A program made the translations under genes and the position numbers. Shown here in pieces: positions 10,407-31,272 of a stretch of 32,000 nt of DNA. The DNA comes from Candidatus Hadarchaeota archaeon (lineage in GTDB: Archaea; Hadarchaeota; Hadarchaeia; Hadarchaeales; Hadarchaeaceae): NCBI GenBank assembly GCA_964514965.1, contig CAZETV010000001.1, forward strand, positions 753,063-785,062. Direction: 5' to 3'. The notes beneath the pieces were generated by a model, which made no database searches, was not told the DNA's origin, and worked only from the letters and a program-made list of their open reading frames with translations. How positions within the stretch are numbered: position 1 is the stretch's first letter; the number at the start of each line of letters is the position of its first letter.

Positions 10407-10409
10407 TTT

Positions 10410-13048: not shown

Positions 13049-13057
13049 ATGACCCCC

Positions 13058-14209: not shown

Positions 14210-14218
14210 AATCGACCC

Positions 14219-15106
14219 CTATAGTTTAATTTCTCCGGCCCCCTTTGTTGCAATCTTTGTCGCTATCAAAGTATTGCACAGCAACATCACGCGCGTCATG
14301 GGCCCTACGCCACCCGGCACCGGAGTGATGTAGGACGCTTTTTCCATCACGCTTTCAAAATCGACATCACCATGCAACTTGCCCCCAACGTAATTCATGC
14401 CCACATCGACAACGACAACGCCCTCCTTCACCATCCCCCCTCTGACTACAAAGTTCGGACGTCTGCCTACCGCGCTGATCAAAACATCAGCTGCTAGGAT
14501 ATGTTTTTCCAGCCCCTGAGTTTTTGAGTGGCAAACGACAACTGTGGCATTTCGATCTAAGAACAATTTTGATAGCGGCTTGCCCACGAGATCGCTTCGG
14601 TTAATTATCACTGCAAGTTTACCTGCGAGTTCGATTCCATAGTGATCAAGCAACTTTACTATACCCTTAGGTGTGCATGGTAACAATTCATTATCAGAAT
14701 CATACATACCTAACCAAAGCTTCCCCACGTTGTAAGGGTGCAACCCATCCACATCTTTTTGAGGATTTATGCGAACTGTCACTTTTTTCTTATCAATTTG
14801 AGGAGGGAGGGGCAACTGCACGAATATTCCGTGAACTTTACGCTCCTTGTTTAGCTCATCGACTAGTTCAAGGATTTTCTGCTCAGCTGTTAATGCCGGA
14901 AGCTCGTAGAGCCTGAAATCAATGCCGACCTCATCACAATCCTTGCCCTTTCCTTTAACATAAATTCTTGAAGAAGGATCATCGCCGACCAATATGGTGG
15001 CTAGGGTTGGAGTTATACCCCTTTCTTTTTTAAAAACTTCCACATGCGATGCAATATCTCGCTTAAACTTTTCTGCGAGAGCCTTGCCGTCCATTATCAC
15101 TGCCAT
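14219..15106 (-). CDS. folD: Bifunctional methylene-THF dehydrogenase / methenyl-THF cyclohydrolase
   Basis: ILVGDDPSSRIYVKGK, DVDGLHP and PVPGGVGPMT motifs. Confidence 0.9.
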   Translation of the reverse strand: MAVIMDGKALAEKFKRDIASHVEVFKKERGITPTLATILVGDDPSSRIYVKGKGKDCDEVGIDFRLYELPALTAEQKILELVDELNKERKVHGIFVQLPLPPQIDKKKVTVRINPQKDVDGLHPYNVGKLWLGMYDSDNELLPCTPKGIVKLLDHYGIELAGKLAVIINRSDLVGKPLSKLFLDRNATVVVCHSKTQGLEKHILAADVLISAVGRRPNFVVRGGMVKEGVVVVDVGMNYVGGKLHGDVDFESVMEKASYITPVPGGVGPMTRVMLLCNTLIATKIATKGAGEIKL

Positions 15107-15218: not shown

Positions 15219-16676
15219 TCAAAATTCAGGGGTGTGCATCTTTCCGAGCCTATCCCTGTATTTCAGAAGGATTGGTTTGGCGACTTCTTTCACGAATTTT
15301 TCACATCGCTCACGAGCGTCGCCCAAATGTTCAGTCGGATCTAACAGCCTGTCAATCTCCTCTCCGCTCAATTTAGAGCTTATCGTCCGGTCTTGTTTCA
15401 ACAACTGAGGCAATGGGTTTTCCTCACCTATCATTACCCGCTCCCAAGCTTTGAATGAGAGTTCGCGAAGTTTCTCATGCATTTGCTGTCTGTGCCCACC
15501 TCGCTCGACGAGTTTCATCAAAATCGCTTCCGTCCCTGAAAATGCTCCATATTTTTCAAGGTTCCGCTTCAGGATTACGGGATAAATTCTAACATCCCGC
15601 ACCACTCGATCGTAAAGCATTAAACATTCGTCGGTGGCCAAGAAGCCTTCGGGTATAACAATTCTTCTATTCGCTGAGTCGTCCAAAGTTCGCTCGAAAA
15701 TTGTCTGCGCTGCATTTTCCCACACAACCCTCGGTAGCGTACCAACGTACCTTGCTAACGAGCACATCCGCTCGGCAGTCACAGGATTTTTCTTAAAAGG
15801 CATTGCAGAAGAGCCAACTCTGGTCTCTTTCATCGGTTCAGACATCTCTCCATATGCAGGAGATTGCATGTGCCTCAAATCAAGACCAAACTTATGCGTA
15901 CTCTGCACAATGCTGGCCAACAGCGACAAAACCATGTAATCGAGCTTTCGTGGGTAGGTTTGAGTCGAGACGGAGTACGTTTTTAACCCCAGTTTTTGCA
16001 TCACATCTTTTTCGAGATCGGCGGATTTGCCTTTGCGTCCCAACAATCTCTGAAAACTCGCAGAAGTTCCGATCGCCCCTTTTATCCCCCTTCCCTTCAT
16101 TAAGTTTTCTAGCAGATTTTCCACGTTATAAATGTCCAAGACGATATCTTGAGCATAATTCGCAAATCGATAACCTAGAGTTGTAGGTACCGCTGGCTGT
16201 AGATGTGTCCAGCCGATGCATGCCAAATCCTTGTACTTCGTTATATGTTTAGATAAAGAATCCAAACAATTGGTCAACCTTGTTAAAATTACGTCAAAAG
16301 CGGCTTTCATCCTCAGAACATCCGCGTTGTCCTCAATATCCATCGATGTCGCGCCAAGATGAATTTTACCGCCGCCGATCGGGCATTGCTCGGCATATGC
16401 TTTAATCTCCGCCATCAAATCGTGCCCGATCTCTCTCTCAATCTCGTGAGCCCTTTTCAAATCAACGTGTTCTGGACCCATTTTAGATTTTAAATCAGCC
16501 AATTCTTTCCGAGTAACAAGACCGTATTTTGATTGAGCTTCGGCAAGAGCCACCCAAATTTTCCTCCATGTCGCCCTATAATTGATTTCAGAAAAAATCT
16601 TTCTCATCTCAGGACTACCGTATCGCCATGTAAATGGGGAAAGGAAAGTCCCATAATCAAATTTTTCGGTCCTCAT
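15219..16676 (-). CDS. purB: Adenylosuccinate lyase
   Basis: 485 aa of the fumarase/ASL superfamily, with the GSSAMPFKKNP signature loop. Confidence 0.9.
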   Translation of the reverse strand: MRTEKFDYGTFLSPFTWRYGSPEMRKIFSEINYRATWRKIWVALAEAQSKYGLVTRKELADLKSKMGPEHVDLKRAHEIEREIGHDLMAEIKAYAEQCPIGGGKIHLGATSMDIEDNADVLRMKAAFDVILTRLTNCLDSLSKHITKYKDLACIGWTHLQPAVPTTLGYRFANYAQDIVLDIYNVENLLENLMKGRGIKGAIGTSASFQRLLGRKGKSADLEKDVMQKLGLKTYSVSTQTYPRKLDYMVLSLLASIVQSTHKFGLDLRHMQSPAYGEMSEPMKETRVGSSAMPFKKNPVTAERMCSLARYVGTLPRVVWENAAQTIFERTLDDSANRRIVIPEGFLATDECLMLYDRVVRDVRIYPVILKRNLEKYGAFSGTEAILMKLVERGGHRQQMHEKLRELSFKAWERVMIGEENPLPQLLKQDRTISSKLSGEEIDRLLDPTEHLGDARERCEKFVKEVAKPILLKYRDRLGKMHTPEF

Positions 16677-16854
16677 GCCCTCACCGAATCAACCATTCTT
16701 CGCTCTTAGCCTCTTTAACCTTAGCGGAGAATTGAAAAATCTAGAGCTATCCAGCACTGGAGTATTGGGTCAAAAACTCAATTCAAAGAGTGCACTCCAT
16801 AACTACTATTATTCTTACCATATTTTTGAAAATTGGTTCTCCACGCACCGATGG

Positions 16855-16862
16855 TTATAAAT
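16855..16862 (+). promoter_or_regulatory. TATA-like box upstream of purE
   Basis: TTATAAAT lies about 25-30 nt upstream of the ATG at 16887. No SD is visible, which would fit a leaderless or short-leader archaeal transcript. Confidence 0.35.
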
Positions 16863-16886
16863 CTCGCCACCAGAAAATATCAACGA

Positions 16887-17369
16887 ATGTCGCAAAAAGT
16901 CGTTATCCTGTTTGGCTCCAAGGTGGATGTCGATTTCGCCAAACCACTGAGGCGCACGTTGCAAGAGTTTGGAATAAATTTTGACCAATGGATCACTTCG
17001 GCTCACAAGACGCCAAAAAAGGTACTAGAAATATTGAGAGAATACGAAAAGTCCGAAGATGAATTGATCTACATAACGGTCGCTGGCAGATCAAATGCTC
17101 TTTCGGGTGTAGTCGATGCGAATACTAAATTTCCCGTAATAGCGTGCCCGCCATGTTCTGAAAGATTAAGTATCGATATCTACTCGTCGTTACGTATGCC
17201 AAGCGGTGTTGCCCCCCTTGTTCTTTTGGACCCCGAAGCTGCAGCTCTGGCGGCTGCGAAAATCTTGGCATTGGATAATGAGAAACTTTCAAAGAAAATT
17301 ACAAACTATCAAAGTCAAATGAAGAAAAAAATAGAAGCCAACAACAAAACGCTTAGACGCAAAAATTAA
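16887..17369 (+). CDS. purE: AIR carboxylase, class II PurE
   Basis: ATG at 16887 gives MSQKVVILFGS... The motifs SAHKTP, VAGRSNALSGVV, FPVIACPP and SSLRMPSG match class II (metazoan PAICS-type) PurE. They do not match class I SAHRTP/AGGAAHLPG. Confidence 0.9.
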   Translation: MSQKVVILFGSKVDVDFAKPLRRTLQEFGINFDQWITSAHKTPKKVLEILREYEKSEDELIYITVAGRSNALSGVVDANTKFPVIACPPCSERLSIDIYSSLRMPSGVAPLVLLDPEAAALAAAKILALDNEKLSKKITNYQSQMKKKIEANNKTLRRKN

Positions 17370-17399
17370 TTTGAGATGTTGACCGGCGCATCCAATCGA

Positions 17400-17415
17400 T
17401 TTTTAAAGGAAAAAA
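17400..17415. terminator. Back-to-back oligo-T tracts between the convergent purE and purF-like genes
   Basis: T5 on the + strand (17400-17404) lies after the purE stop. A6 (17410-15), which is T6 on the - strand, lies 15 nt after the purF-like stop. This is the archaeal style of oligo-T termination. Confidence 0.35.
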
Positions 17416-17429
17416 GCATTACTCTATTT

Positions 17430-18842
17430 TTAAGCTTTCCGAAACGGGTCTGCTATAGATTTGCCAGCCCATACATACAGGCAAAGACGCTCTTTGGGAA
17501 GCCCGATAGCCTTTATCATGTCATCCAATTTTTGATATCTTAATGAAGTAACATTCAACTCTTTGGCAATATAATTTACCATTTTCTTATACTTCTTTGA
17601 ATTTGGATCAATATATTCATCAACATTTTCAATATCTCTTCCTTCAATGACTTTTATAGCGCGGCGAGCGGCCAATTCTTCCATCCTCCTTGTTGAATAA
17701 TCGAACACGCTCGGGAACAATAGGGGTGGGCAAGCTATGCGTAAGTGAACTTTTTTTGCTCCATTATCCCACAATTTTTGTACAATATTTCTTAACTGGG
17801 TGCCTCTTACTATCGAATCATCACAGAGAATAATTCTTTTTCCTTCAATCAACTCTTTAATCGGGATTAATTTCATCCTCGCAACCAACTCTCTTGTCTC
17901 TTGAGAGGGCGGTGTATAACTCCTGTCGTACCCGGGGGTATACTTAACCAGCGGTCTCCTAAAAGGAATTTTTGACTCCAATGAATAGCCGATAGCATGA
18001 GTAGTACCTGAATCCGGAATACCAGCGACCATATCTGCCTTGACGTTATCATTCTTCGCCAGATATCTTCCACACCTCTCTCTGACAATTTCTACATTTA
18101 TTCCCTCATAGGAAGAAGCTGGAAATCCTGAATAAATCCATAAAAAGCTGTTTATTTGGCCTATGGTTGTACCTTTCTGCTTTTGACCAATCCCTGAAGG
18201 GGTGAGTAAGACTATTTCTCCAGGCAAAAGATATTTCTTAATTTTAAAACCTAGATTAAAAAAAGATGAACTCTCGGAAGTTACTGCCCAAGAGCCTCTC
18301 TTTTGCCCAACAATAAGAGGACTATAACCAAACTTATCCCTAACAGCATAGATGCCCTCTTTATTGAGCAGAAGAAGCGAACAAAAACCCCTAATCTTGC
18401 CAAACATGTGATTAATTCCTTCCACAATGGTCTTTCCCTCTGCAATGAGCTTAGCAACAAGTTCAGTAGAATTCACGCCTGCGCCGGTTATCTCACTGAA
18501 CGAGATGCCTTTTTCACGTAATTCGCTGGCCAGCTCTTCGGCATTTTGTATTAAACCGGTTGAACATATGCAGAACTGACCAAATTTTGAATCCAAACAA
18601 ACGGGTTGTATTTCTCTAGAGGTGATTACGCCGATCCCGCTATTTCCATGCATAGTCTTGTAATCATCATAAAATTTTGACTTGAACTGACTCTACCCCA
18701 ACGTGTGGATACTTCTTACAATCCTCTCCCCCAAAACTGCTAGGCCGCCATATTCCGTGCCCAAGTGGGAGAGATAGTCTGTGCCGTGAAATAGATTTTC
18801 CGAACAATCCTGCCGAGAGATTACCCCAAAAATTCCACTCAT
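17430..18842 (-). pseudogene. purF: Amidophosphoribosyltransferase (PurF)-like gene interrupted by an in-frame TAG, with a degenerate glutaminase domain
   Basis: My translation from ATG 18842 is MSGIFGVISRQDCSENLFHGTDYLSHLGTEYGGLAVLGERIVRSIHTLG. A TAG follows at 18693-18695, then SQFKSKFYDDYKT. The reading frame continues into the 407-aa track ORF (17430..18653, MHGNSGIG...). The N-terminus aligns to PurF MCGIxG...LQHRGQxxAGI. The C-terminal half has an intact PRPP motif, ILCDDSIVRGTQ. Confidence 0.7.
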
Positions 18843-18859
18843 TTTGATCCACTCATTTT
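18834..18859 (-). repeat. Tandem duplication of the purF-like start region (AAAATGAGTGGA x2, 14-nt period)
   Basis: The forward strand has tccactcatttt at 18834-18845 and again at 18848-18859. This creates a second upstream ATG at 18856. Confidence 0.8.
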
Positions 18860-18883
18860 AATCTTCCATAAAATAGTTTAAGA

Positions 18884-20281
18884 CTATGTTTTCAGGAGTT
18901 CTTCCACATGCTTTTTGCTTCTGTTTATGTATTCTGGGAGAGCTATGTCTTCTCTGTGTCTCAAAGGACCATCTATTTTTCTAATTCCTTCCATGGAGAT
19001 TTCTCTAGCTTCATCCAATGTGTTTGATATCCCCACCACCGCAACAGCTCTGGAACTTAAAGCATGAAAACCTCCATTTCTCAGTTCCATCGCCCCTGGA
19101 TAAATTCTCAAATTATCTCCGTACTTTTCCTTTAATTTTTCAGCTTTGTTTAGATCTAGTTTTTTAGGACCCGAGTAACTTACGTATCCCCCATATTCCA
19201 GAGGAACTGCGTAAGTCACAACTGTTGCTTTATCTTCAAAATCGAGTTTTATTAAATTACCATCTAAAATTTTGAAGCAAACGTCAACAAAATCATCTTT
19301 CAAAATTGGCAGGATATTCATTACTTCCGGGTCGCCCCATCTGCTGTTTATCTCAAGGATTTTTACACCACTTTTTGTGGTTATGTAAGCCATGTATAGA
19401 TTTCCTCTAACTCCCAGGTTTTTTTTGGCCTTCTTTAACCCATCATGAATCTTCTCTCCTATCTTCAGCGATTCTCTCCAATCGCTTTCATTCATGAACG
19501 GGAGCAAATTTTCTCTATCCTTGTAAGAACCCATCCCCCCAGTGTTTGGTCCTAGATCCCAGTCAAAGGCCCTCTTGTAATCTCTGACAGCGGGAGTGGA
19601 AACCAAATGCTCTCCATCGGAAACAAACTGTAAAGAAAACTCTTCTCCCTCTAACTTTTCCTCGACTATTACTGCTCCCTTTTCAAAACTCGGCAAAAAA
19701 TAATCCTCAAACAAACTTTCTCTAGATGCGAAATGGTCTCCCCAGACGCCAACCCCTTTTCCTGTTGCTGGTGCATCGGGCTTTACAGCTACTTCGTTTC
19801 CAATTTCATTCAACCACTTGTATACCTCTTTTTTAACTTCAGTCTTTGTACCATAATCGCTGGGATCGAAGACCTTGAATCTCGGATTGGCAGAAGGAAC
19901 TATTTCCTCTATTAATCTTCTCTGTTCGACTTTGCTTCTCTCGATAAAATATTCGGCTGTTGGACATATCATTTTTATCTTTGTTTCTTTTTCGATTCTA
20001 TCTCTAATCCCGTTCATGCCCGGGGCTTCAGGACCGAACACACCGAAGTCGATTTCATTTTCATGTTTCTTAGCAAATTTGGTGATATCATCTACATTTA
20101 AATTTGGAATTACGAAATGTTCCCCTCCAGTTTCTTCCGCCTTTTTTATATTGTAAGGATTTCCCTGCTTGTCTGCTATGAAGAGTTTTACCTCATGATT
20201 ACTTCTGGAAAGGGAATCCGCCATGCAAGCGAACCTACTCCCATAACTTATACCTAAAACTCCCACCGCCAACTTTGACAC
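18884..20281 (-). CDS. purD: Phosphoribosylamine-glycine ligase
   Basis: ATP-grasp protein with VKPDAPATGKGVGV and RDYKRAFDWDLGPNTGGMGSY (canonical form DHKR..GPNTGGMG). GTG start. Confidence 0.9.
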   Translation of the reverse strand: MSKLAVGVLGISYGSRFACMADSLSRSNHEVKLFIADKQGNPYNIKKAEETGGEHFVIPNLNVDDITKFAKKHENEIDFGVFGPEAPGMNGIRDRIEKETKIKMICPTAEYFIERSKVEQRRLIEEIVPSANPRFKVFDPSDYGTKTEVKKEVYKWLNEIGNEVAVKPDAPATGKGVGVWGDHFASRESLFEDYFLPSFEKGAVIVEEKLEGEEFSLQFVSDGEHLVSTPAVRDYKRAFDWDLGPNTGGMGSYKDRENLLPFMNESDWRESLKIGEKIHDGLKKAKKNLGVRGNLYMAYITTKSGVKILEINSRWGDPEVMNILPILKDDFVDVCFKILDGNLIKLDFEDKATVVTYAVPLEYGGYVSYSGPKKLDLNKAEKLKEKYGDNLRIYPGAMELRNGGFHALSSRAVAVVGISNTLDEAREISMEGIRKIDGPLRHREDIALPEYINRSKKHVEELLKT

Positions 20282-20283
20282 CT

Positions 20284-21003
20284 CTAAACCGTTTTAATCC
20301 ACTTTTTCCCATTCTTGACATAAACATTTTTGTCAAAGTCGATGGCGAACATTCCCTTTGATAACATTTCAAGAGTTTTCCTGTAAGCAGGGCCGTCACA
20401 TTTTTCTTTCATAAGCTTTTGCTGTTCCTCTGGACTTCTATTTTCTACCGGTAATCCCTCGGATACGAAGAGGATGGGCCCGTGGTCTGGTTTTTCGTCC
20501 ATTATATGGATGGTGGACCTCGTGATTTTATCACCGGATTTTATTTGCTCTTCGACCGCGTTACTTCCGGTATATTTTCTCTTCCCCCCTTCTTTTATCC
20601 TTAAATCTGCAGGATGTACGTTTAGAACCTTAGCTGGAAATCCGTTCAACAACTTTGTCAAAATATACATGTAACCAGAGCATGCGATTATATCTGGCTC
20701 CCACTTTTTTATAATTGACAAAAGTTTTTCATCGTAGGCCTCCCTAATCTTCATGTCCTTAATTGGTTTGCCCCCATAGAAATCGTAGATATCCACCACT
20801 TCTACAGGTATACCTAACTCCTCAACCATTTTTATTCCAGAAGCATTTTTATTTGAAGAAATAGCTCCGACGACTTCGTATCCTTCGCCCCCGACCATGA
20901 AAGGAACAGCACTGGCACCTCCAGAAAAAAGCACGACAATCCGCATTTTTCTATCTTTTTTTGGTTCGTATATCAGCTTCAACTTTTGATTCATATCTAC
21001 CAA
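20284..21003 (-). CDS. purN: Phosphoribosylglycinamide formyltransferase-like (formyltransferase fold)
   Basis: IVVLFSGG, LNVHPADL and MDEKPDHGPIL correspond to the PurN Asn/His/Asp catalytic positions. There is an insertion (RIKEGGKRKYTG). The start is uncertain: TTG 21003, ATG 20994 or ATG 20946. Confidence 0.75.
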   Translation of the reverse strand: MVDMNQKLKLIYEPKKDRKMRIVVLFSGGASAVPFMVGGEGYEVVGAISSNKNASGIKMVEELGIPVEVVDIYDFYGGKPIKDMKIREAYDEKLLSIIKKWEPDIIACSGYMYILTKLLNGFPAKVLNVHPADLRIKEGGKRKYTGSNAVEEQIKSGDKITRSTIHIMDEKPDHGPILFVSEGLPVENRSPEEQQKLMKEKCDGPAYRKTLEMLSKGMFAIDFDKNVYVKNGKKWIKTV

Positions 21004-21193
21004 TGAAATTTTTTACTGTTCTTTTTAATCTATCTATACTCCCCCCCGCAAGTAGCTTTTTCTCTCGTTACCTAATCCTTGTTGAAAGCGATTAGAAGGA
21101 GTGGAGCGAGTAGAACCCTGTTATTTTTACTAATCTGCTGGAGCACTGAATTAACAAATAACTTTATTAAGTATATCCCACTTAAGGCTGAAG

Positions 21194-22810
21194 GTGGTTT
21201 GTTTGACGGAAAGAGTCTCTAAAGATTCTTCCTACCTGAATGCTTCTTCTTCAACTAATACGAGAACTCGCGTGAGAGATGTAAGCCCGACGAGCGGGAT
21301 GTGTCCAATCTGTATCAAGGAGTGCCCCTTTCTCTGTGAAATTAGCCTTTCCGCTTTTCGCGGACGTGAAGTTCTTTATCCAGTACCCAAGCAATTTGGG
21401 CTCAGCACTGCGGCATCTTTAAAGAACTACGGCCTAGATTGGTCCCATATAAACATTCTTTCGGGGCTTAGGGGAGCCAGCGGTATTGAAGAAGATTCTG
21501 ATATGGCAACTTTTCCCAACGTGAATATCAAGTCCGACCTAGGTGGGATTCCTCTCAAACTTCCACTTGTAAACGGCGCATTTGGCTCCACAAATGTCGC
21601 GGGTGAAAATTGGGATGGTCTCGCGATTGGGGCAGCTCTAGCTGGTGTAATCCTGGTTGTTGGAGAGAATGTCTGTGGAATGGATCCAAACGCTAAGTTC
21701 GCCAATGAAAAATTAACTCATTCAAAAGATATGGAGTATAGGGTTAAGAAGTTTAGAGAGTTTTGGGATGGGAAACATGGTGATATTGCCGTCCAAACCA
21801 ACGTGGAAGACCAAAGGCTTGGCGTAGACGTTTATGCTATTTCCAAGCTTGGAGTCAATGTGATTGAGCGAAAGTGGGGCCAAGGAGCGAAAGTAATAGG
21901 TGGAGAGGTAAGGCTTCCTAATCTAGAACGGGCACTCACACTGAAAAAACGGGGCTACATAGTCCTCCCGAACCCGGATGACCCAACCGTTCAAGAGGCC
22001 TTTAAAGCAGGGGTATTCAAGAGCTTTGAACGACACAGCCGGGTGGGGATGCCGGCTGAAAGAGAATTTGTTGAAGATGTAGAATGGTTGAGGGAACAGG
22101 GCGCAAAAAAAGTAACTTTAAAAACGGGGGCTTACCGCCCCTCCGATGTGGCGTGGACAATGAAAGTAGCTTCCGAAGCCAAAGTTGATTATGTCACTTT
22201 CGACGGCGCTGGTGGTGGCACAGCTATGAGTCCAGTGCCAATGATGAACGAGATGAGTACTCCAACAGTTTATCTTGAAGCGCAGATACTCAAGTGTGTC
22301 CAAATTTTGAAGCAGAAGGGTCGATATGTTCCAGATATCAGCATGGCAGGTGGTTTCATCAACGAGACTCAGATTTTCAAGAGTATCGCGATGAGTAACT
22401 TTGGAGACGGGCCGATAATCAAGGCGATAACTATAGCTAGGGCACCTCTTACCGCAGTTATGAAGGCTACTTACTTCATGGAATTGGCTGAACAGAAAAA
22501 GTTGCCTCGCGATTTCGCTGAGCAATACGGTACAGATCCCGCGAAATTCTTCATCACAGCACCAGAGTTGAATAAGAAATATGGTAGTAAGTCCAAGAAT
22601 ATCCCGTTACCAGCTATAGGACTCTACACATATCTCATTGACCGAATTGGAGTTGGACTCCAACAGTTGATGGCGGGAGCACGAAAGTGGAAAATAGAGT
22701 TGTTAGACAGAAGCGACCTAATATCACTAACAGAAAGAGCATCAAAAGTTACTGGAATTCCGATGCCTGACGATTTCGAGGCCGATGTGATCGAACAAAT
22801 CTTGGAGTGA
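21194..22810 (+). CDS. Glutamate-synthase FMN-domain-like protein with an N-terminal Cys cluster (Fe-S?), function unknown
   Basis: KWGQGAKVIGGEV and FDGAGGGTAMSP resemble the GltS FMN-domain motifs QGAKPGxGG and DGxxGGTGAxP. The N-terminus has CPICIKECPFLCE (CX2CX3CX3C). The start is uncertain: GTG 21194, TTG 21203 or ATG 21299. Confidence 0.7.
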   Translation: MVCLTERVSKDSSYLNASSSTNTRTRVRDVSPTSGMCPICIKECPFLCEISLSAFRGREVLYPVPKQFGLSTAASLKNYGLDWSHINILSGLRGASGIEEDSDMATFPNVNIKSDLGGIPLKLPLVNGAFGSTNVAGENWDGLAIGAALAGVILVVGENVCGMDPNAKFANEKLTHSKDMEYRVKKFREFWDGKHGDIAVQTNVEDQRLGVDVYAISKLGVNVIERKWGQGAKVIGGEVRLPNLERALTLKKRGYIVLPNPDDPTVQEAFKAGVFKSFERHSRVGMPAEREFVEDVEWLREQGAKKVTLKTGAYRPSDVAWTMKVASEAKVDYVTFDGAGGGTAMSPVPMMNEMSTPTVYLEAQILKCVQILKQKGRYVPDISMAGGFINETQIFKSIAMSNFGDGPIIKAITIARAPLTAVMKATYFMELAEQKKLPRDFAEQYGTDPAKFFITAPELNKKYGSKSKNIPLPAIGLYTYLIDRIGVGLQQLMAGARKWKIELLDRSDLISLTERASKVTGIPMPDDFEADVIEQILE

Positions 22811-22836
22811 CTGCTAAAAAGAGTGAAGGTAACCGG

Positions 22837-23775
22837 ATGTTCGAACCTCAGAAATTTCTTGAGGAAAAAGTTGAGTGGCTTAAGATTAACATAGGGAATA
22901 AAAAGGCGGTTGTGGCAATTTCGGGCGGTGTGGATAGCTCCGTAACGACGATGCTGGGACACCACGCGGTCGGTGATAGGTTAACAGCTGTCTTCCTTGA
23001 CGATGGATTGATGAGGAAGGGAGAGCCAGAGCAAGTGGTTGATTGTTTCAAGCAATTGGGAGTAAATATCAAACTTTACGACGTGAGCGGCGAGTTCTTT
23101 AAAGCACTTAAAGGCCTAACGGACCCGGAAGAAAAAAGGAAGGCGTTTAGAGAAACGTTCTATAGAGTTTTCGGCGGAATTGCGCGTGAGTTGGGAGTAG
23201 AGTACTTACTACAGGGCACTATAGCTGCAGATGTAGCGGAAACCAAAGCTGGCATTAAGACCCAACACAATGTTTTAGAGCAGATCGGGATTCATCCGCT
23301 CGAAAAGTATGGTTTTAAAGTTTTGGAACCTCTGAAGGACATCTACAAGCCAGAGGTTCGCGAAGTTGCTAAAATGCTGGGGCTGCCAGCTGAAATCCAA
23401 GAACGAAGGCCTTTCCCAGGCCCTGGCCTCTCGATTAGGATCCTAGGTGAAGTAACTCCCGAAAAAGCAGATTTGGTGAGGAAAGCCACGGAGATTGTAG
23501 AAGAAGAGACCAAAGACACTCCGTGTTTCCAAGCATTTGCGATAGCAATGGGCGACAAAGCGACCGGAGTTACTACGGATAGAGAGAGAAAGTACGGAGA
23601 AATAATAGTGATTCGAGTAGTGCAATCAAAGGATGCCGTGACCGCAAAATCTGTTGAGCTACCATGGCAGGTGTTGAAGCGAATCGAGGGGAGAATAAGA
23701 GAAAAAATCCCGACAGTCACCCGCGTTCTTTACGATTTAACTGACAAGCCTCCGGCGACAATAGAGTACGAATAA
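22837..23775 (+). CDS. guaA: GMP synthase subunit B (ATP pyrophosphatase)
   Basis: MFEPQKFLEE..KAVVAISGGVDSSV P-loop, DPEEKRK, FPGPGL and C-terminal PPATIEYE. ATG at 22837 with GAAGGT 6 nt upstream. The track start GTG 22807 overlaps the upstream stop. Confidence 0.9.
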   Translation: MFEPQKFLEEKVEWLKINIGNKKAVVAISGGVDSSVTTMLGHHAVGDRLTAVFLDDGLMRKGEPEQVVDCFKQLGVNIKLYDVSGEFFKALKGLTDPEEKRKAFRETFYRVFGGIARELGVEYLLQGTIAADVAETKAGIKTQHNVLEQIGIHPLEKYGFKVLEPLKDIYKPEVREVAKMLGLPAEIQERRPFPGPGLSIRILGEVTPEKADLVRKATEIVEEETKDTPCFQAFAIAMGDKATGVTTDRERKYGEIIVIRVVQSKDAVTAKSVELPWQVLKRIEGRIREKIPTVTRVLYDLTDKPPATIEYE

Positions 23776-23938
23776 CGTGATTTATCCAATCCAAATTCTT
23801 GATATCAATCATTAGAATTCAGAAGAAGGGAGTAAAGGGTCTCATCGATGTAGGGGGCAAACCAAGTGGAGGAATACATCCCAGAATTACCGATAACGAA
23901 AACCTTTATTTCTCCTTGATTATCTGGACTTTGGGTAC

Positions 23939-25477
23939 ATGATGAAAATTGTAAGAGCACTGATTAGCGTCTCAGACAGAACCGGCATCGTAGAGTTTGC
24001 AAAAGGGCTTCAAGAACTTGGTATAGAAATCATCTCAACCGGTGGGACAGCAAAAGTTTTGAAAAAAAGCGGGGCAAAAGTAAAAGAAATTTCGGATTTT
24101 ACTGGCTTTCCGGAGATACTTGAGGGCAGGGTTAAGACTCTTCACCCAAAAGTTCATGGAGGAATCCTCGCAATCAGGGAGAAAGAAGAGCACATACGAG
24201 AATTGAGAAAGCATGACATCAAACCTATAGATCTAGTAATTGTAAATCTTTACCCATTTGAGAAAACGATTCTAAGCGGCGGCACAATTGAAGAGGCGAT
24301 TGAAAATATAGACATCGGCGGACCAACTATGCTTCGTTCCGCAGCGAAAAATTACAGAAATGTTGTGGTGATTGTTAATCCTAATGAATATGATGAGGTT
24401 TTAAAGGGGTTGAGAGAAAAAGGCGAAATAAGCGAAAAAACCAGAGAAAGGCTAGCTGTGGAAACATTTACTCACACCGCAAGATATGATACAATAATTT
24501 CAAATTACCTACGGAGAATGTTTCACGGAGAAGAGTTCCCGGAAACACTTTCTTTAACTTATAAGAAAATTCAAAATTTACGCTACGGTGCAAACCCGCA
24601 CCAAAAAGCCGCATTTTATAGAGAGGATATCAAAGAACCCAGCATCGTGAACGCAAGAAAGTTATGGGGAAAGGAACTGTCATATAACAATATCCTTGAC
24701 TTAGGAGCCTCTCTTGAACCCGTGAAGGAATTTGAAAATCCAACCTGTGTTATCATGAAGCACACCAGCCCAATTGGTGTGGCAACAACCGAGAAGATTT
24801 TCGACGCATACAAACTAGCATATCAAACGGACCCGATATCGGCGTACGGTGGGATAGTCGCCCTAAATAGAGAAGTTGATGCGGAAACGGCAAGGGAGAT
24901 ATCAAAAGTATTTTTAGAGGCCATCATCACCCCAAAATTTAGTCGAGAAGCTTTGGATATCCTGAAAAAGAAAAAGAATATACGTCTGCTAGAGATTGAA
25001 CTAAAACCAAGTAGTAGAGAGGGAAAAGAAATAAGATCTATTGTGGGCGGATTGCTCGTCCAAGATAGAGATGTAAAAAAGTTAGACGTGCACAATCTCA
25101 AAATCGTGACCAAGAGAGCTCCAACCAGTGAGGAGATGAAATCCCTGCTGTTTGCATTTAAAGTTGCCCGGTATTGCAAATCAAACGCACTAGTTTTTAC
25201 TAAGGAAGAAAGAACGGTCACAATTGGTTCTGGACAACCCAGTCGAGTAGATGCTGCGCGCATTGCATTGACCAAAGGCGGTGCAAATTTGAAAGGCGCT
25301 GCTATGGCAAGTGATGGATTTTTGCCATTTAGGGATGTTGTCGATGTCGTTGCAGGTGCTGGCGTAACCGCTATCATCCAGCCGGGAGGGTCGATTAGAG
25401 ACCAAGAAGTTATCGATGCTGCGAACGAATATGGTATGTCGATGGTATTCAGCAACATAAGAGTATTCAAACACTGA
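23939..25477 (+). CDS. purH: Bifunctional AICAR transformylase / IMP cyclohydrolase
   Basis: 512 aa with RALISVSDRTGIVEFA..STGGTAK (MGS-like domain) and the C-terminal AICARFT domain. Confidence 0.95.
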   Translation: MMKIVRALISVSDRTGIVEFAKGLQELGIEIISTGGTAKVLKKSGAKVKEISDFTGFPEILEGRVKTLHPKVHGGILAIREKEEHIRELRKHDIKPIDLVIVNLYPFEKTILSGGTIEEAIENIDIGGPTMLRSAAKNYRNVVVIVNPNEYDEVLKGLREKGEISEKTRERLAVETFTHTARYDTIISNYLRRMFHGEEFPETLSLTYKKIQNLRYGANPHQKAAFYREDIKEPSIVNARKLWGKELSYNNILDLGASLEPVKEFENPTCVIMKHTSPIGVATTEKIFDAYKLAYQTDPISAYGGIVALNREVDAETAREISKVFLEAIITPKFSREALDILKKKKNIRLLEIELKPSSREGKEIRSIVGGLLVQDRDVKKLDVHNLKIVTKRAPTSEEMKSLLFAFKVARYCKSNALVFTKEERTVTIGSGQPSRVDAARIALTKGGANLKGAAMASDGFLPFRDVVDVVAGAGVTAIIQPGGSIRDQEVIDAANEYGMSMVFSNIRVFKH

Positions 25478-25492
25478 AGCGCTAGATAAATC

Positions 25493-25510
25493 AAAAAATC
25501 TATGGTTTTT
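25493..25510. terminator. Back-to-back oligo-T tracts between the convergent purH and carB genes
   Basis: A6 (25493-25498), which is T6 on the - strand, lies after the carB stop. T5 (25506-25510) on the + strand lies after the purH stop. Confidence 0.35.
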
Positions 25511-25516
25511 GAGACA

Positions 25517-28500
25517 TCAAACCGTTTGAATCTTCTTTACCTCAGTATGATATTCATTGAGCGACCTAATCTCAATTTTTTCATTCAATATTTTCTCTAT
25601 TGCCTGAACAGCCACACTCGCGCTCGTTAGAGTTGTAATATACGGAATCCCGATATCTACCGCTGCCCGCCGAATCTGGTATCCATCGCGCACCGGATCT
25701 CGTCCGACGGTGGGAGTGTTGATAATTAAATCGACATCGCCAGCGCGGATGTAATCGATGATGTTTGGACGCCCCTGGGAAACTTTCAATACTAGTTTTG
25801 ACTCGACGCCAGCTTTCTGGAGCATATCACCCGTGCCATCAGTGGCCAAAATCTCGAATCCAATTTTCTTAAGCTTTCTCGCAATCGGGACGAACTCCTG
25901 TTGGTCCCCCTTTCGTACACTCATGAATATCCTCCCCGAAGTTGGGAGCTTGTTACCGGCCGCCAGCTGGGCTTTGAAAAATGCCCTGCCCGGGTCACGG
26001 TCTATGCCCATTACTTCACCGGTCGACTTCATCTCAGGACCCAGAACCGGATCGACTCCGGGAAGTTTAATGAAAGGAAAGACTGATTCCTTCACACAAA
26101 CATACGGTATTTCTACATCTTTCGGAATTCCAATCTCGTCGAGTGAATGTCCAAGCATAACCTTGGTGGCGACTTTAGCTAATGGAATTCCGATAGCCTT
26201 CGATATGAAAGGTACTGTACGACTCGCCCGCGGATTTACCTCAAGCACGTAAACTACATCATTCTTGACCGCATACTGGATGTTCATCAGGCCAATAACT
26301 TTTAATTCTCTTGCAAGCCTAATAGTGCACTCCCTGATTGTCTTGATGGCTTTCTCGCTCAGAATTTGAGAAGGCATAACCATGGCAGCATCTCCCGAAT
26401 GAACACCAGCTTCTTCGATGTGTTCTAAAATCCCCCCGATGAAAGTTCGTTTTCCATCCGAAACCGCATCGACATCGACTTCAATTGCCTGAGAGAGGAA
26501 CTTGTCGATGAGGATTGGGTGTTCCTCTGATACCTTCGCGGCTTCTTCCATGTAGCGTGCGAGTTCGATTTCATCATGCACCCGCACCATGGCACGTCCA
26601 CCAAGAACATAACTTGGCCTCACTAAGACGGGATATCCAATCTTTTTCGCTATCTTTTTTGCCTCCTCAGCCGAGAAAGCTGTACTTCCTTCGGGCTGAT
26701 GAATTTCCAATTTCCTAAGAAGTTTGTTAAAGCGCTTTCTATCTTCAGCAATATCAATACTTTCAGCTGAGGTTCCGAGAACATTAACGCCAGCCTTATC
26801 CAGTGAAACTGCAAGATTTATTGGAGTTTGACCACCAAACTGTAAAATCACTCCATATGGTTTTTCTTTCTCTATGACGTGCATTACATCTTCAAATGTA
26901 AGCGGCTCGAAGTAAAGCTTGTCAGATGTGTCTGAATCGGTGGAGACGGTTTCCGGGTTATTGTTAATGATTATAGCTTCGATTCCCTCCTCCCGCAAAG
27001 CCAGTACTGAGTGGACACAACAATAATCAAATTCTATCCCTTGGCCGATTCGGATAGGCCCTCCACCTATAATAATTATCTTCTTCCGCTTGCTAGTCGG
27101 AACCTCATCAACAGGTTCATAGCTCGAGTAATAATAGGGGGCCTTGGCGGCAAATTCAGCGGCACAAGTATCCACTGTCTTAAAAGTAGTTTTGACGCCC
27201 ATTTGCTTGCGAAGTTGCTTAATATTCCTCTCTTTGGTTTTGAACAAGTAGGCGAGTTGTCGGTCCGAAAAACCAAATCTCTTTGCTTCCCCCAAAGCTT
27301 TATTTTTTTCAGATTTTTTCAGAGATATGCGCTTGAGTTTTTCTTCCATGTCGATAATTCGCTTAAACTTCCAAATGAACCAAGGATCAATCTTCGTTAG
27401 TTGATAGATTTCATCTACACCGATCCCAATCTTGAGCGCATCTCTAACCAAGAAAACTCTTTGGTCATTTGGGTGGGTTAGCTGCCACTTTAGAGGCTCG
27501 ATATCAATGATAGGTTTGTCCTTTCCGTCACCACCGAGGCCAAACCTCCCGATTTCGAGTGAACGTATCGCCTTTTGGAACGCTTCTTCGAATGTCCGTC
27601 CGATCGCCATCACTTCTCCCGTGGACTTCATTTGTGTACCTATCGTTTGGTCAGCTTCTGGGAATTTATCAAACGGCCAACGCGGGACTTTGATTACCAC
27701 GTAGTCAAGAGTTGGCTCAAATGAAGCGGGGGTATCCTTAGTAACAGGGTTGGAAATTTCATCTAGAGTCATCCCAAGCGCTAGTTTCGTCGCTATCCTG
27801 GCAATCGGGTAACCCGTGGCTTTAGATGCAAGCGCGGAGGAACGGCTGACTCTTGGATTGACTTCGATTATATAGTACTCAAATTTGTCTGGATTAACAG
27901 CAAACTGAATATTGCAGCCACCGTTTAGTTTAAGAGCCCGGATTACTTTCAGGGAAACGGACCTTAGGGTTTGGTGCTCCCGGTCGGAAAGCGTTTGAGC
28001 CGGAGCGACGACCATACTCTCGCCAGTGTGAATTCCCATAGGGTCGATGTTTTCCATGTTACAGATGGTAATACAGTTGTCTACACTATCACGCATCACC
28101 TCGTACTCGATTTCCTTCCAACCGAGCACACATTTGTCGAGAGAAACGGTTCGATTTAAACTCACGTTTAGCCCAAATTTCACGATTCGTGTGAGTTCCT
28201 CTTCATCATGCGCAACGCCTGAACCCGTGCCACCCAGACAGTAGTTAGGTCTGCATAAGATTGGGTATCCATCAAGCTCTTTGACGGCCCCCAATGCCTC
28301 CTCAAGTGAGTGAACTTCAATGGATTTAGGCATTCGTTCGCCTATCTCGTGAATAAGTTCGAAAAAGAGCTTCCGATCCTCGGCAGCCTTAATGGAGTTT
28401 ACTGGTGTTCCTATCACCTCGACTCCCACCTCATCGAGCACCCCTAACTTTTGGAGTTCTACCGTGAGATTAAGGCCAGTTTGACCACCCATCGAAGGAA

Positions 28501-28759
28501 TCACAGCGTCTGGTTTCTCCTTGCGTATTATTTCAGCTACTATTTCAGGCACCAAAGGCTCGATGTATACGATGTCCGCGATATCCGTGTCTGTTTGGAA
28601 AGTGGCTGGATTAGAATTAACGAGGACAACTTCTATTCCTTCCTCGCGCAGTGCTTTACAGGCTTGCGAACCTGAATAGTCAAATTCGGCCGCTTGACCT
28701 ATCACTATGGGTCCACTGCCGATTACCATCACTTTCTTGATGTCCTTACGTTTGGGCAA
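25517..28759 (-). CDS. carB: Carbamoyl-phosphate synthase large subunit
   Basis: 1080 aa with duplicated ATP-grasp halves. The N-terminus is MPKRKDIKKVMVIGSGPIVIGQAAEFDYSG. TTG start preceded by TAGGAGG. Confidence 0.95.
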   Translation of the reverse strand: MPKRKDIKKVMVIGSGPIVIGQAAEFDYSGSQACKALREEGIEVVLVNSNPATFQTDTDIADIVYIEPLVPEIVAEIIRKEKPDAVIPSMGGQTGLNLTVELQKLGVLDEVGVEVIGTPVNSIKAAEDRKLFFELIHEIGERMPKSIEVHSLEEALGAVKELDGYPILCRPNYCLGGTGSGVAHDEEELTRIVKFGLNVSLNRTVSLDKCVLGWKEIEYEVMRDSVDNCITICNMENIDPMGIHTGESMVVAPAQTLSDREHQTLRSVSLKVIRALKLNGGCNIQFAVNPDKFEYYIIEVNPRVSRSSALASKATGYPIARIATKLALGMTLDEISNPVTKDTPASFEPTLDYVVIKVPRWPFDKFPEADQTIGTQMKSTGEVMAIGRTFEEAFQKAIRSLEIGRFGLGGDGKDKPIIDIEPLKWQLTHPNDQRVFLVRDALKIGIGVDEIYQLTKIDPWFIWKFKRIIDMEEKLKRISLKKSEKNKALGEAKRFGFSDRQLAYLFKTKERNIKQLRKQMGVKTTFKTVDTCAAEFAAKAPYYYSSYEPVDEVPTSKRKKIIIIGGGPIRIGQGIEFDYCCVHSVLALREEGIEAIIINNNPETVSTDSDTSDKLYFEPLTFEDVMHVIEKEKPYGVILQFGGQTPINLAVSLDKAGVNVLGTSAESIDIAEDRKRFNKLLRKLEIHQPEGSTAFSAEEAKKIAKKIGYPVLVRPSYVLGGRAMVRVHDEIELARYMEEAAKVSEEHPILIDKFLSQAIEVDVDAVSDGKRTFIGGILEHIEEAGVHSGDAAMVMPSQILSEKAIKTIRECTIRLARELKVIGLMNIQYAVKNDVVYVLEVNPRASRTVPFISKAIGIPLAKVATKVMLGHSLDEIGIPKDVEIPYVCVKESVFPFIKLPGVDPVLGPEMKSTGEVMGIDRDPGRAFFKAQLAAGNKLPTSGRIFMSVRKGDQQEFVPIARKLKKIGFEILATDGTGDMLQKAGVESKLVLKVSQGRPNIIDYIRAGDVDLIINTPTVGRDPVRDGYQIRRAAVDIGIPYITTLTSASVAVQAIEKILNEKIEIRSLNEYHTEVKKIQTV

Positions 28760-28770
28760 CTTGAAGCCTC

Positions 28771-29853
28771 CTAACTATTCTCCTTTAGCATCCCCACAAA
28801 ATTATCGAAGAGATACTGGTTGTCCCATTCGGGGTAGTATTGAATCGAGATAATTGGAAGCTCAACATGGCTCATGCCTTCGACGGTTTTATCGTTACAA
28901 TTCACTTTAGTAATTTGAAAGCCAGTCCCCTCAAGAGAATCGGCATCCACGGCGAAACCGTGATTTTGAGAGGTTATATGCACCTTGCCGGTTCTCAAAT
29001 CCTTAACCGGCTGGTTCCCTCCCCTGTGCCCAAACTTCAACTTGAAAATCTTGGCGCCTGAGGCCAGAGCTAAGATTTGGTGACCAAGACTGATGCCCAT
29101 AATTGGATATTGAGAAAGCAACTTTCGAACTGTCCCTCGAACGTGACTTAATATGGCTGGGTCTCCTGGTCCGTTTGAGATGACGACTCCATCGGGCTCA
29201 AGAAATTTAATTTCCTCAGAAGTCGTGCTTGCGGGAACGCATGTTACCGAAACCCCGCGCTTGAGCAAGCTTCGAATGATACTGCGCTTGACGCCGCAGT
29301 CAATCAAGACCACTTTGAGTTTGTCACCACCGTCAAATTCTCCAACTTGCTTACAAGTGGTTTCGCTAACGAGATCTAGCTCAGAAAAGCCGAGCTGCTT
29401 CTTAACCTTTTCAAGCAACTCCGCAGCTGGGGGGTCCACACCGGTGTAGGTTACAATCATTCCCTTCTTCACTCCATACTCTCGAATCTTGATGGTGAGC
29501 GAGCGAGTATCCACGCCCATCATACCTGGTATGTTAAACTCTTTCAAAAATGCGTCAAGAGTTTTGGCACCTTTCCAGTGAGACGGGTTCTCGCAAACTT
29601 CTCTGACGATGAATCCTTCTGCCCAAATTCTATCGGATTCACACCAATCCGGATGTACCTTGTAATTTCCTACCAAGGGATATGTTAACATCAAAATTTG
29701 GCCTTTATAAGAGGGGTCTGTTAACGATTCAACGTAACCGCTCATCGAAGTGTTAAAAACTACTTCACCCGATGCTTCTTTTTCGGCACCAAATCCCGCA
29801 CCGTAAATTATTGTACCGTCTTCCAGAGCGAGCACTGCTTTTGTTCTTTTCAA
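28771..29853 (-). CDS. carA: Carbamoyl-phosphate synthase small subunit with a substituted catalytic triad (Cys->Ser, His->Tyr)
   Basis: Aligns to CarA along its full length (VVFNTSMSGY, SNGPGDP, FGHRGGNQPV, QNHGFAV). However, it reads GISLGHQ (AGT codon at 29089-29091) and QYYPEW (TAC at 28834-28836) where GICLGHQ and GHPE are expected. Confidence 0.9.
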   Translation of the reverse strand: MKRTKAVLALEDGTIIYGAGFGAEKEASGEVVFNTSMSGYVESLTDPSYKGQILMLTYPLVGNYKVHPDWCESDRIWAEGFIVREVCENPSHWKGAKTLDAFLKEFNIPGMMGVDTRSLTIKIREYGVKKGMIVTYTGVDPPAAELLEKVKKQLGFSELDLVSETTCKQVGEFDGGDKLKVVLIDCGVKRSIIRSLLKRGVSVTCVPASTTSEEIKFLEPDGVVISNGPGDPAILSHVRGTVRKLLSQYPIMGISLGHQILALASGAKIFKLKFGHRGGNQPVKDLRTGKVHITSQNHGFAVDADSLEGTGFQITKVNCNDKTVEGMSHVELPIISIQYYPEWDNQYLFDNFVGMLKENS

Positions 29854-29919: not shown

Positions 29920-31272
29920 TTATCCGGTTAGACTTTGGATTGGGGAAGGTATTCTCCCGCCCCTCGATACAAATTTTGATGAACTAAATTTGCCCACCTT
30001 CATCACCGGCGCTCTCCCTAACAGCCCCCCTAATTCTACCCATTCTCCCTCTTTTCCCATCGGGATTATCCTTACACCGGTTGCCTTATCGTTCGCGACG
30101 CCTATCGCGCATTCGTCCGCGATGACCGCGGCGATAGTTTCCGATGGTGTCTTGCTTGGCACCACTATCATGTCCAAACCAACTGAACAGACCGAAGTCA
30201 TCGCCTCTAACTTATCTAAACTCATGGCGCCCTCAGCCACCGCTTCAGCCATGTCCTTGTCTTCGCTGACGGGGATGAATGCCCCAGATAAGCCACCCAC
30301 ATATGAGGTCGCCATCACTCCCCCCTTCTTCACGGCATCCGTAAGAATGGCAAGCGCTGCAGTACTGCCATGAGTTCCACATTTTTCCACCCCCATGGCT
30401 TCAATTATTCCCGCGACCGAATCGCCTTCAAAAGGAGTTGGGGCCAACGATAAGTCAATAATCCCGAATTTAACGTTCAACCTTCTCGCCATTTCCCGCC
30501 CGACTAGCTCTCCAACCCTCGTTATCTTAAATGCAGTTTGCTTGATTTTCTCGGCCAGCTCTCCGAAATCAGCATCACTAAGCTTTTCTACTACAGCTCT
30601 AATGACGCCGGGGCCTGAAATTCCAACGTTGACGCTGTTCTCTGCCTCTCCAACACCGTGAAAGGCCCCTGCCATGAACGGATTATCAGGAGGGGCATTC
30701 GCGAAGGTAACAAGTTTGGCACAGCTCAATGGATTAATTGATGCGCATTCCTTCACCGCCTTTCCCATCCTAAGCACGGCGTCCATGTTGATTCCACTTT
30801 TAGTAGTTGCGACGTTTACAGAGGAACATAATCGCTTGGTTTTGTTCAGCACCTTCGGGATGGAATCAATCAAGAGCTCGTCTCCCTTGGTGAACCCTTT
30901 GTGCACTAGAGCGGAGTACCCTCCAATATAGTCCACTTTCAATTTTTCGGCAGCCACGTCCACACATTTCGCCAATTTCACGCAAGTACTCTCTTTTTTG
31001 GTGTTCAATGCGTCCAACAAGGAAGCTAGGGGAGTAACAGCAATCCTTTTATTGACAATCGGCAGCCCATATTTCATCTCCACTTCCTTTGCTTCTTTGA
31101 CGAGGTCACAGCCTACCGAGGTGATTTTTTTGTAGACCTTTTTGCACATTCGGTCGATATTCGGATCAATACATCCACCAAGATTTATCCCCAAGGTAAC
31201 TGTTCGAATGTCCAGCCGTTCAAAATTAATCATCTTTATCGTTTCGGCTATCTCTTCCTTGGAAAACTGCAT
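29920..31272 (-). CDS. UPF0210 / DUF711 family protein, function unknown
   Basis: 450 aa. I recognise the N-terminus ([20 protein letters not shown]) as UPF0210. This family is typically paired with a small ACT protein. Confidence 0.75.

Follow-up and report, generated by a model that had tools for sequence, protein, structure and literature searches.

In a window of 32,000 nucleotides from a Candidatus Hadarchaeota archaeon (NCBI assembly GCA_964514965.1, contig CAZETV010000001.1, positions 753,063 to 785,062 of the forward strand; "the window" denotes this whole stretch throughout), a supercluster of pyrimidine and purine genes of a Hadesarchaeon (Hadarchaeales) encodes what are probably two independent glutaminase-dead enzymes, likely users of ammonia. 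One is CarA, the carbamoyl phosphate synthetase (CPS) small subunit, and the other is a protein resembling the amidophosphoribosyltransferase PurF. A previous reading made from the letters alone, referred to here as the sequence-only reading, had grouped these two with a lone gene for the ATP-pyrophosphatase (ATPPase) subunit of guanosine monophosphate (GMP) synthetase, guaA-B, and had proposed a coordinated shift from glutamine to free ammonia or another ammonia donor. Its interpretation is partly supported: the explanation we favour, with a probability of roughly 0.55, is that of two unrelated glutaminase-dead proteins of separate origin accompanied by one ordinary gene. The closest named relatives are Hadesarchaea/Hadarchaeales. 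The window DNA recurs in a 51-kb Logan contig of sequencing run SRR14802574 as well as in an NCBI contig 1,030,738 bp long, and the analysis covered about 51 kb of the source genome.

A dismantled glutaminase site in the CPS small subunit

The carA gene of the window (28771-29853, minus strand) encodes a recognisable CPS small subunit, which scores 442.5 against TIGR01368 (cut-off 307.35) and matches PF00988 (2.4e-51) and PF00117 (9.6e-43). Its class-I glutaminase site is dismantled, with Ser/Tyr/Glu (S/Y/E) in place of the triad Cys269/His353/Glu355 of Escherichia coli CarA, just as the sequence-only reading had described. Ser255 occupies the nucleophile position in the motif GISLGHQ (codon AGT, 29091-29089) and Tyr340 the position of the triad histidine in the motif QYYPEWD (codon TAC, 28836-28834), while the glutamate is retained (Glu342, 28830-28828). 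That reading had overlooked a deletion of five residues straight after Glu342, which in an alignment to E. coli CarA corresponds to A356-S-P-G-P360; no convincing microhomology was found at the deletion site. The glutamine-pocket motifs SNGPGDP, the Gln of GxSLGHQ, and QNHGF are still present. Judged by these residues, the glutaminase site of this protein, hereafter the altered CarA, is dead.

The Cys/His/Glu (C/H/E) triad was present in 80/80 CarAs from 80 other species among the matches listed in a scan of GTDB genomes, a baseline with no Hadesarchaea among those matches that was used for triad comparison only. It was likewise found in 106 of the 120 nearest CarA homologues; the 14 exceptions all fell among the 25 closest, 12 of them in a group with named Hadesarchaeal sequences and two (P0023 and P0025) of unknown origin. 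The S/Y/E form with its deletion is common to six clusters at 90% identity, comprising 45 sequences from independent NCBI, JGI, ENA, and Logan assemblies, which bears out the earlier view that the substitutions are no assembly artefact and are not unique to this assembly. Around the altered gene, the order ACT-DUF711-carA-carB is invariant (L001-L004, L096-L101).

At the nucleophile position, one sister lineage (L099/P0005) carries Gly (GGC) and the other sister lineages encode Ser by AGC rather than AGT. The presence of Gly instead of Ser in one lineage indicates that no nucleophile is required. Intermediate carB-linked CarAs keep the cysteine and have the same deletion, with triads reading C/F/E, C/S/E, C/P/E, and C/C/A (L089, L090, L091), and other Hadesarchaea (L086-L088) possess a carB-linked carA that is fully canonical, again in the ACT-DUF711 context. 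We propose that the carB-linked carA of some Hadesarchaea would have lost the triad histidine and the next five residues first, with the nucleophile Cys changing to Ser or Gly afterwards, in the clade of the window.

When compared with the sister locus L002, the altered carA showed a ratio of non-synonymous to synonymous substitution rates (dN/dS) of 0.12 overall, with 0.11-0.13 in the glutamine amidotransferase (GATase) part and 0.14 in the N-terminal domain; the neighbouring genes carB, purD, purH, and DUF711 gave values of about 0.08-0.19. As the dead GATase part is as constrained as live domains and neighbouring genes, the altered CarA appears to be retained for a function other than glutamine hydrolysis. 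Its presumed partner is the CPS large subunit encoded by carB (25517-28759, minus strand; 1080 aa, from its open reading frame (ORF) and translation, with domains called on the same gene in L001). The two genes are separated by 11 nt, with the altered carA upstream, and the window carB is 92% identical to that of L002 (dN/dS 0.09). Purifying selection on the altered CarA would be expected if CarB continues to depend on it structurally or allosterically.

Resemblance to vertebrate CPS I

By analogy with known systems, the altered CarA and CarB most likely form an ammonia-fed CPS resembling vertebrate CPS I. In human CPS1, the glutaminase-like domain is kept but inactive, its cysteine being replaced by Ser294, and the enzyme uses ammonia only, taken from outside (PMC4655335). 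The altered CarA shares with CPS1 (PDB 5DOU/5DOT) both the Cys to Ser change and the retained glutaminase-like domain, and aligns with the N-terminal moiety of CPS1 at E = 4.7e-67. At the same time, CPS1 is one fused, N-acetylglutamate-dependent chain, whereas the archaeal carA and carB are separate genes. CPS1 also retains the triad His and Glu as well as the TPGP loop, whereas the altered CarA additionally lacks the histidine and the five-residue loop, so that the archaeal protein has gone further. CPS I is, to our knowledge, known only from animals, and a literature search for prokaryotic CarA with a dead glutaminase site returned nothing.

The best PDB match of the altered CarA is the E. 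coli CarA mutant C269S (1C30/1C3O), whose GISLGHQ motif is identical to that in the window; this mutant is reported to bind glutamine without hydrolysing it. Another entry, 1M6V, carries G359F, inside the very loop that the altered CarA deletes (A356-P360). C269S, G359F, and the variant in 1T36 are laboratory point mutants, whereas the altered CarA represents a natural and conserved loss of Cys, His, and loop. We take A356-P360, or residues 355-364 of E. coli CarA, to be part of the wall of the ammonia tunnel. Disturbing the 355-364 loop reportedly gives bulk solvent access to the tunnel and uncouples the use of glutamine, leaving synthesis from ammonia in place; this role of the loop and the behaviour of mutants G359F and P360A/H361A are reported by Thoden et al. 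(2002) and by Kim and Raushel (2004). From this tunnel-wall role and the deletion we infer that the altered CarA acts as a CarB partner with an ammonia port: the missing loop would leave the tunnel open to solvent as a permanent entry port, and the enzyme would take up free ammonia as vertebrate CPS I does.

A Cys-less PurF paralogue family

The PurF-like gene (17430-18842, minus strand) has its true start at the ATG at 18842, and its product begins with MSGIFG, residue 2 being a serine encoded by AGT (18839-18837). The serine at the first position after the initiator Met and the degenerate N-terminal nucleophile (Ntn) domain reported by the sequence-only reading were both recovered, as the glutamine-site residues Arg26, Arg73, Asn101, and Asp127 of Bacillus subtilis PurF are all replaced. 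Canonical PurF (B. subtilis 1AO0/1GPH; E. coli 1ECB) shares with the PurF-like protein the Ntn-type and type-I phosphoribosyltransferase (PRTase) domains, the DDSxxRGT and PDS motifs, and the loop Arg, but has the N-terminal Cys and all four of the glutamine-site residues. In the window protein, the type-I PRTase domain contains DDSIVRGTQ, the PDS motif, and the loop Arg, while the score on TIGR01134 is 195.9 against a cut-off of 350, and identity to canonical PurF is 27%. With such an N-terminal domain, the predicted protein cannot be a glutaminase.

A search of 1.84 billion representative proteins gave 8,404 matches at E <= 0.001, of which 894 reached E <= 1e-30, with proteins of the same kind on top. 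NCBIfam has no model for this family. Of the 120 nearest homologues, 98 start with MSGIFG and the others with MGG or MDG. In the list of the 150 best representatives (50% identity), family members have S, G, T, A, or D as residue 1, with Cys in none of them, and Cys-bearing canonical PurFs appear only lower down. Where position 1 is Ser, it is encoded by AGT or AGC in 26/26 cases. Two of the former glutamine-site positions have changed in a consistent manner (Arg26 to Leu in 40/49, Arg73 to Ser in 46/49) and variation is seen at positions 101 and 127. Within DDSxxRGT, all 49 members share the second Asp, the Ser, and the Arg, and the loop Arg and PDS positions are kept in 46-48 of 49. Three of the four iron-sulphur cysteines, kept in most of the family, are gone in the Hadesarchaeal subgroup. 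The window protein, although interrupted by a TAG codon, bears the marks of the family, namely a start of the form M-[S/G/T]-G-[ILFV]-[FCVM]-G, the motif GTDYxSHLG, an intact PRTase domain, and a length of about 465-480 aa; it is 89% identical to P0121 and 60-67% to homologues including those of Omnitrophota.

The order purN-purD-PurFlike-purE is conserved among Hadesarchaea (L002, L096-L101). On a 128-kb bacterial contig (L122), the order is purL-purQ-PurFlike-purF-purM, in which the purF is canonical and Cys-bearing; this tandem shows that the family coexists with real PurF. On the strength of these comparisons, the PurF-like protein is a member of an old and widespread bacterial and archaeal paralogue family, not a decayed PurF. 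The family appears to be uncharacterised in the searchable literature, where we found nothing except a brief mention of a different Ser-bearing PurF paralogue, Mlab_0150 of Methanocorpusculum labreanum, which its authors judged not to be the glutamine amidotransferase and described as a recent duplicate of the organism's own purF (PMC3261824).

As Brown et al. 2011 (PMC3261824) relate, citing Mei and Zalkin, replacement of Cys1 by Ser or Ala deprives E. coli PurF of its use of glutamine but not of ammonia. Given this mutant behaviour, the most likely function of the PurF-like protein, by analogy, is synthesis of phosphoribosylamine (PRA) from phosphoribosyl pyrophosphate (PRPP) and ammonia. 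More generally, the family would make PRA from PRPP and ammonia or another non-glutamine donor, alongside canonical PurF or replacing it. The gene just upstream of the PurF-like gene in the window is purD (18884-20281, minus strand; TIGR00877 score 234.9), whose product consumes PRA.

A side observation concerns DUF1846/UPF0371, which adjoins the PurF-like gene in L109-L115 and L118 and lies near carA/carB in L021, L022, L026, L091, and L118, in neighbourhoods from Omnitrophota, Planctomycetes, and one Hadesarchaeon. Structures of this family are available (7F00, 3BH1), and its sole published role is hemin binding in Streptococcus pneumoniae (PMC9238395). It may have some connection with nucleotide or nitrogen metabolism.

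Interruption of the PurF-like gene in this genome

In the window, codon 50 of the PurF-like gene is an in-frame TAG (18695-18693), overlooked by the sequence-only reading, where all relatives have CAG (Gln); the remaining mechanical ORF covers 407 aa from Met64 (18653). All relatives have the ribosome-binding site GAGAGGG, which here has become GAGTGGA (18845-18855, minus strand), and the altered region yields a second ATGAGTGGA together with a 5-codon upstream ORF. Against L002, dN/dS is 0.155 in both domains. With a stop codon and an altered ribosome-binding site at a dN/dS that is still low, the allele looks freshly inactivated, and the gene may have only just been knocked out in this genome. 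Read-through or pyrrolysine insertion at the TAG was considered and rejected, as TAG is an ordinary stop here, ending 6/21 genes including purD just upstream, and relatives encode Gln by CAG at this position.

The missing catalytic residues, together with the nonsense codon and altered ribosome-binding site of the PurF-like gene, might suggest that both genes are functionless decaying relics. This is very unlikely in view of their dN/dS values, which equal those of housekeeping neighbours, and of dead domains that are as constrained as live ones. Reading frames are intact in all relatives, and PurF-like proteins remain 60-67% identical between archaea and bacteria such as Omnitrophota. The idea is contradicted at the level of the clade and holds only for the PurF-like allele of the window.

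The least probable alternative we considered, and a highly improbable one, is that Ser has become a substitute nucleophile, with which the two enzymes would go on cleaving glutamine or some other amide in the manner of Ser- or Thr-type Ntn hydrolases. Ser and Thr do predominate at position 1 of the PurF-like family, within an AGY/ACY codon block, and the glutamine pocket of the altered CarA is largely retained. However, Gly is found at the nucleophile position both in the CarA of L099/P0005 and in the PurF-like proteins of several Hadesarchaea, and Asp and Ala also occur at the PurF-like position. The general-base His, too, is missing from the altered CarA, the PurF-like protein retains none of PurF's glutamine-binding residues, and the Cys1 to Ser mutant of E. 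coli PurF has no glutamine activity in the account cited above.

An ordinary guaA-B and an intact PurQ

The third gene of the proposed pattern, guaA-B (22807-23775, plus strand), passes TIGR00884 with a score of 351.6 against a cut-off of 338.75 and matches PF00958 at 2.2e-26; comparison of starts points to ATG 22837 as the likely initiation codon, giving 312 aa in agreement with relatives. We confirmed that no class-I glutaminase gene adjoins it in the window. In many archaea, though, the two GMP synthetase units are separate genes, and the ATPPase subunit alone uses ammonia in vitro (PMC10526850). A lone ATPPase gene like guaA-B is found with the two-subunit enzymes of Methanocaldococcus jannaschii and Pyrococcus horikoshii, and guaA-B shows nothing unusual beside them. 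Since split genes are common in archaea, its isolation reflects an ordinary archaeal layout and is not evidence of loss, contrary to what the sequence-only reading had drawn from it.

PurQ, the glutaminase subunit of formylglycinamidine ribonucleotide synthase (purQ, 9597-10406, minus strand; PF13507 at 4.4e-66), has an intact triad, as that reading had stated, consisting of Cys95 in GICNGFQ and His230 and Glu232 in HPER, which indicates that the purine pathway still uses glutamine.

Directly upstream of guaA-B lies an ORF of 538 aa (21194-22810, plus strand) with weak similarity to the flavin mononucleotide domain of glutamate synthase (PF01645, at 1e-06 only) and a Cys-rich N-terminus (CPICIKECPFLCE); it has no NCBIfam or PDB match. 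The ORF is absent from the sister loci L002 and L096-L101, and among these loci occurs only in this genome. The synonymous divergence (dS) of guaA-B is 0.99, twice that of its neighbours, which suggests a local replacement or insertion at the 538-aa ORF and guaA-B.

A canonical carA-purF-pyrG cluster in the same sample

A canonical CarA (P0008; motifs GICLGNQ and HPEGSPGP) is encoded on a 245,056-bp NCBI contig and on a 41-kb Logan contig (L005) from the same run, SRR14802574. On the latter (7618-14351), glnA and gltS subunits are divergent from nrpR-carA-purF-pyrG-rpl18e-rpl13, thus placing three glutamine amidotransferases and a nitrogen-regulator homologue in one apparent operon (nrpR-carA-purF-pyrG). 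The purF is canonical (...ESCGVFG, HRG, HVRY, YNGN), and the orphan carA has no adjacent carB. The same cluster is found at 91% DNA identity in a second sample (L094, 238-5483). In both, the glnA-nrpR spacer contains a perfect palindrome, TAGGTA-N6-TACCTA (L005, 8963-8980; L094, 86-103), which occurs nowhere else in 140 loci or the window; the Methanococcus-type NrpR operator GGAA-N6-TTCC is absent.

It is somewhat more likely than not that this cluster belongs to the same genome as the window. The ten core genes of L005 all have clade-A-like codon usage, as does the window; the log-likelihood ratio averages +0.04 per codon, in a classifier that was more informative than base composition but cannot tell one clade-A genome from another. 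P0008 is 85, 79, 77, and 73% identical to other Hadesarchaeal CarAs, and the window CarB 82, 78, 79, and 76% to their counterparts; the altered CarA is 65-69% identical to all of those CarAs, as expected of an accelerated copy. GC content at third codon positions (GC3) is 0.49 in the L005 core genes versus 0.455 in the window, and both GC3 and tetranucleotide correlation are ambiguous, L005 itself being heterogeneous. No L005 ribosomal or core protein had a cluster member on the 1.03-Mb contig, which says little, as the clustering was incomplete (P0008 and P0009, 94% identical, fell in separate clusters). Canonical copies elsewhere in the genome, which the sequence-only reading had itself named as evidence that would go against it, may therefore exist.

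If so, the genome could have two routes: a glutamine-dependent nrpR-carA-purF-pyrG set beside glnA/gltS and an ammonia-using set in the supercluster, with two small subunits competing for one CarB and the donor switching with nitrogen status. We hold this arrangement to be possible, if only tentatively. L005 comes from the same run and its core genes have the codon usage just described, the identities of P0008 track those of the window CarB, the gene contents of the contigs are complementary, and 1.03 and 0.245 Mb add up to a plausible total for one genome. The orphan carA without carB fits such a scheme, as does the knocked-out PurF-like gene, which implies another source of PRA, and the cluster and its upstream palindrome are conserved in a second organism. 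What speaks against it, besides the ambiguous compositional comparisons and the limited confidence in a shared genome, is that P0008-like sequences are 15 times rarer than the altered CarA of clade A, so that two routes would not be general for the clade; in addition, with the Methanococcus-type operator absent, regulation is pure inference.

The proposal of the sequence-only reading was instead a coordinated abandonment of glutamine for CPS, for PRA synthesis, and perhaps for GMP, with no canonical carA, purF, or guaA-A in the genome and free ammonia feeding all of them. In its favour, no second CarA or canonical PurF was found on the 1,030,738-bp contig among the best 120 matches per search; only 3 P0008-like sequences stand against 45 altered CarAs of clade A, so that most clade-A genomes probably have no canonical second carA; and the altered CarA and the PurF-like protein occur together in every clade-A locus seen. 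We nonetheless regard it as unlikely. The PurF-like family, a Cys-less paralogue shared with bacteria, is far older than the decay of CarA, which took place stepwise within Hadesarchaea, and it coexists with canonical PurF on L122; differing in age and origin, the two losses do not amount to one coordinated trait. The PurF-like gene is broken here, which would be hard to tolerate in a sole source of PRA, a lone guaA-B is normal, PurQ keeps its triad, and the same sample contains a canonical carA-purF-pyrG cluster whose codon usage is clade-A-like. The shared codon that had seemed to link the two serines, AGT in both cases in the window, carries no information: sister CarAs have AGC or GGC, the PurF-like family uses AGT or AGC throughout, with Thr or Gly at times, and the match is a coincidence that dissolves in relatives. 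Of the ammonia-feeding lineage, what stands are the dead sites of CarA and the PurF-like protein and the purifying selection on the altered CarA, whereas guaA-B turned out to be ordinary and the PurF-like gene to be interrupted by a stop.

Several observations weigh against our preferred explanation of two separate ammonia users, or complicate it. Ammonia use by the altered CarA or the PurF-like protein is drawn from the precedents of mutants and CPS I. Most bacterial PurF-like genes lie outside pur clusters, and the motif GTDYxSHLG, with Ser/Thr at position 1, is conserved in the former glutamine pocket, which hints at a ligand or chemistry yet to be recognised and not at simple use of ammonia. 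With respect to CarA, the identical five-residue deletion is found in three Hadesarchaeal groups (P0010, P0011, P0013, P0020, P0024, P0001-6), and the canonical, loop-bearing P0008 nests among the deleted CarAs in the protein tree. This conflict between deletion and tree means that a single history of "His first, Cys later" may be too simple.

To account for the pattern, the deletion must have arisen repeatedly, or gene conversion or a swap of the 3' end must have taken place. P0008 is 83-85% identical to P0013 over its whole length, and no clear mosaic emerged when P0008 was scanned for recombination with P0013 and with canonical CarAs, on which ground a mosaic origin was dropped as a solution. 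Separately, P0023 and P0025 (65-66% identical, outside the main group) have Gly for the nucleophile Cys, one of them retaining His and Glu, which suggests that the CarA nucleophile may have been lost more than once in archaea.

Other genes of the window and of the sample

The remainder of the window is made up largely of further nucleotide biosynthesis genes. A complete pyrimidine block (pyrD, pyrK, pyrC, pyrB, pyrI, pyrF, and pyrE) occupies about 3045-9600 and is followed, after purQ, by purL (10410-12782), purS (12779-13048), purM (13058-14209), folD (14219-15106), purB (15219-16676), and purE (16833-17369). Beyond purD lie purN (20284-21003) and, past guaA-B, purH (23939-25477), while DUF711 (29920-31272) and then an ACT protein come after carA. 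PurM, PurN, PurD, and PurE all score under the NCBIfam equivalog cut-offs.

The genome holds both this purH, of the bacterial bifunctional type (737 bits to NF002049), and an archaeal purP (L001, 5693-7084; DUF1246/DUF1297), two apparently redundant ways of completing purine synthesis. On L005, four genes past the ribosomal block (16500-20000; HSP20-like and PadR-like genes included) have a GC3 of 0.62-0.70 and deviant codon usage, and look like a foreign island beside a gas-vesicle gene.

Implications

Reviews describe prokaryotic CPS as the glutamine-dependent CPS II (PMC6022934) and treat the ammonia-only CPS I as an animal innovation. The altered CarA is a new natural case resembling CPS I, and a conserved archaeal Cys to Ser CarA would, if this holds true, constitute an independent natural experiment on how amidotransferases abandon glutamine. 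The case also invites a direct test of the idea that an "escape route" made by engineering might let ammonia in. With considerable reserve, we put forward a "perforated-tunnel" CPS, in which loop deletion followed by triad loss would have turned CarA into a non-catalytic ammonia port, parallel to animal CPS I, and which in some genomes would work beside a Cys-less PurF and an nrpR-linked canonical operon, the donor being chosen by nitrogen status. For the second protein, the consequences extend beyond Hadesarchaea: the Cys-less PurF paralogues form a large family in bacteria and archaea that is labelled "amidophosphoribosyltransferase" in databases, and metabolic reconstructions may err where they treat them as PurF enzymes that depend on glutamine.

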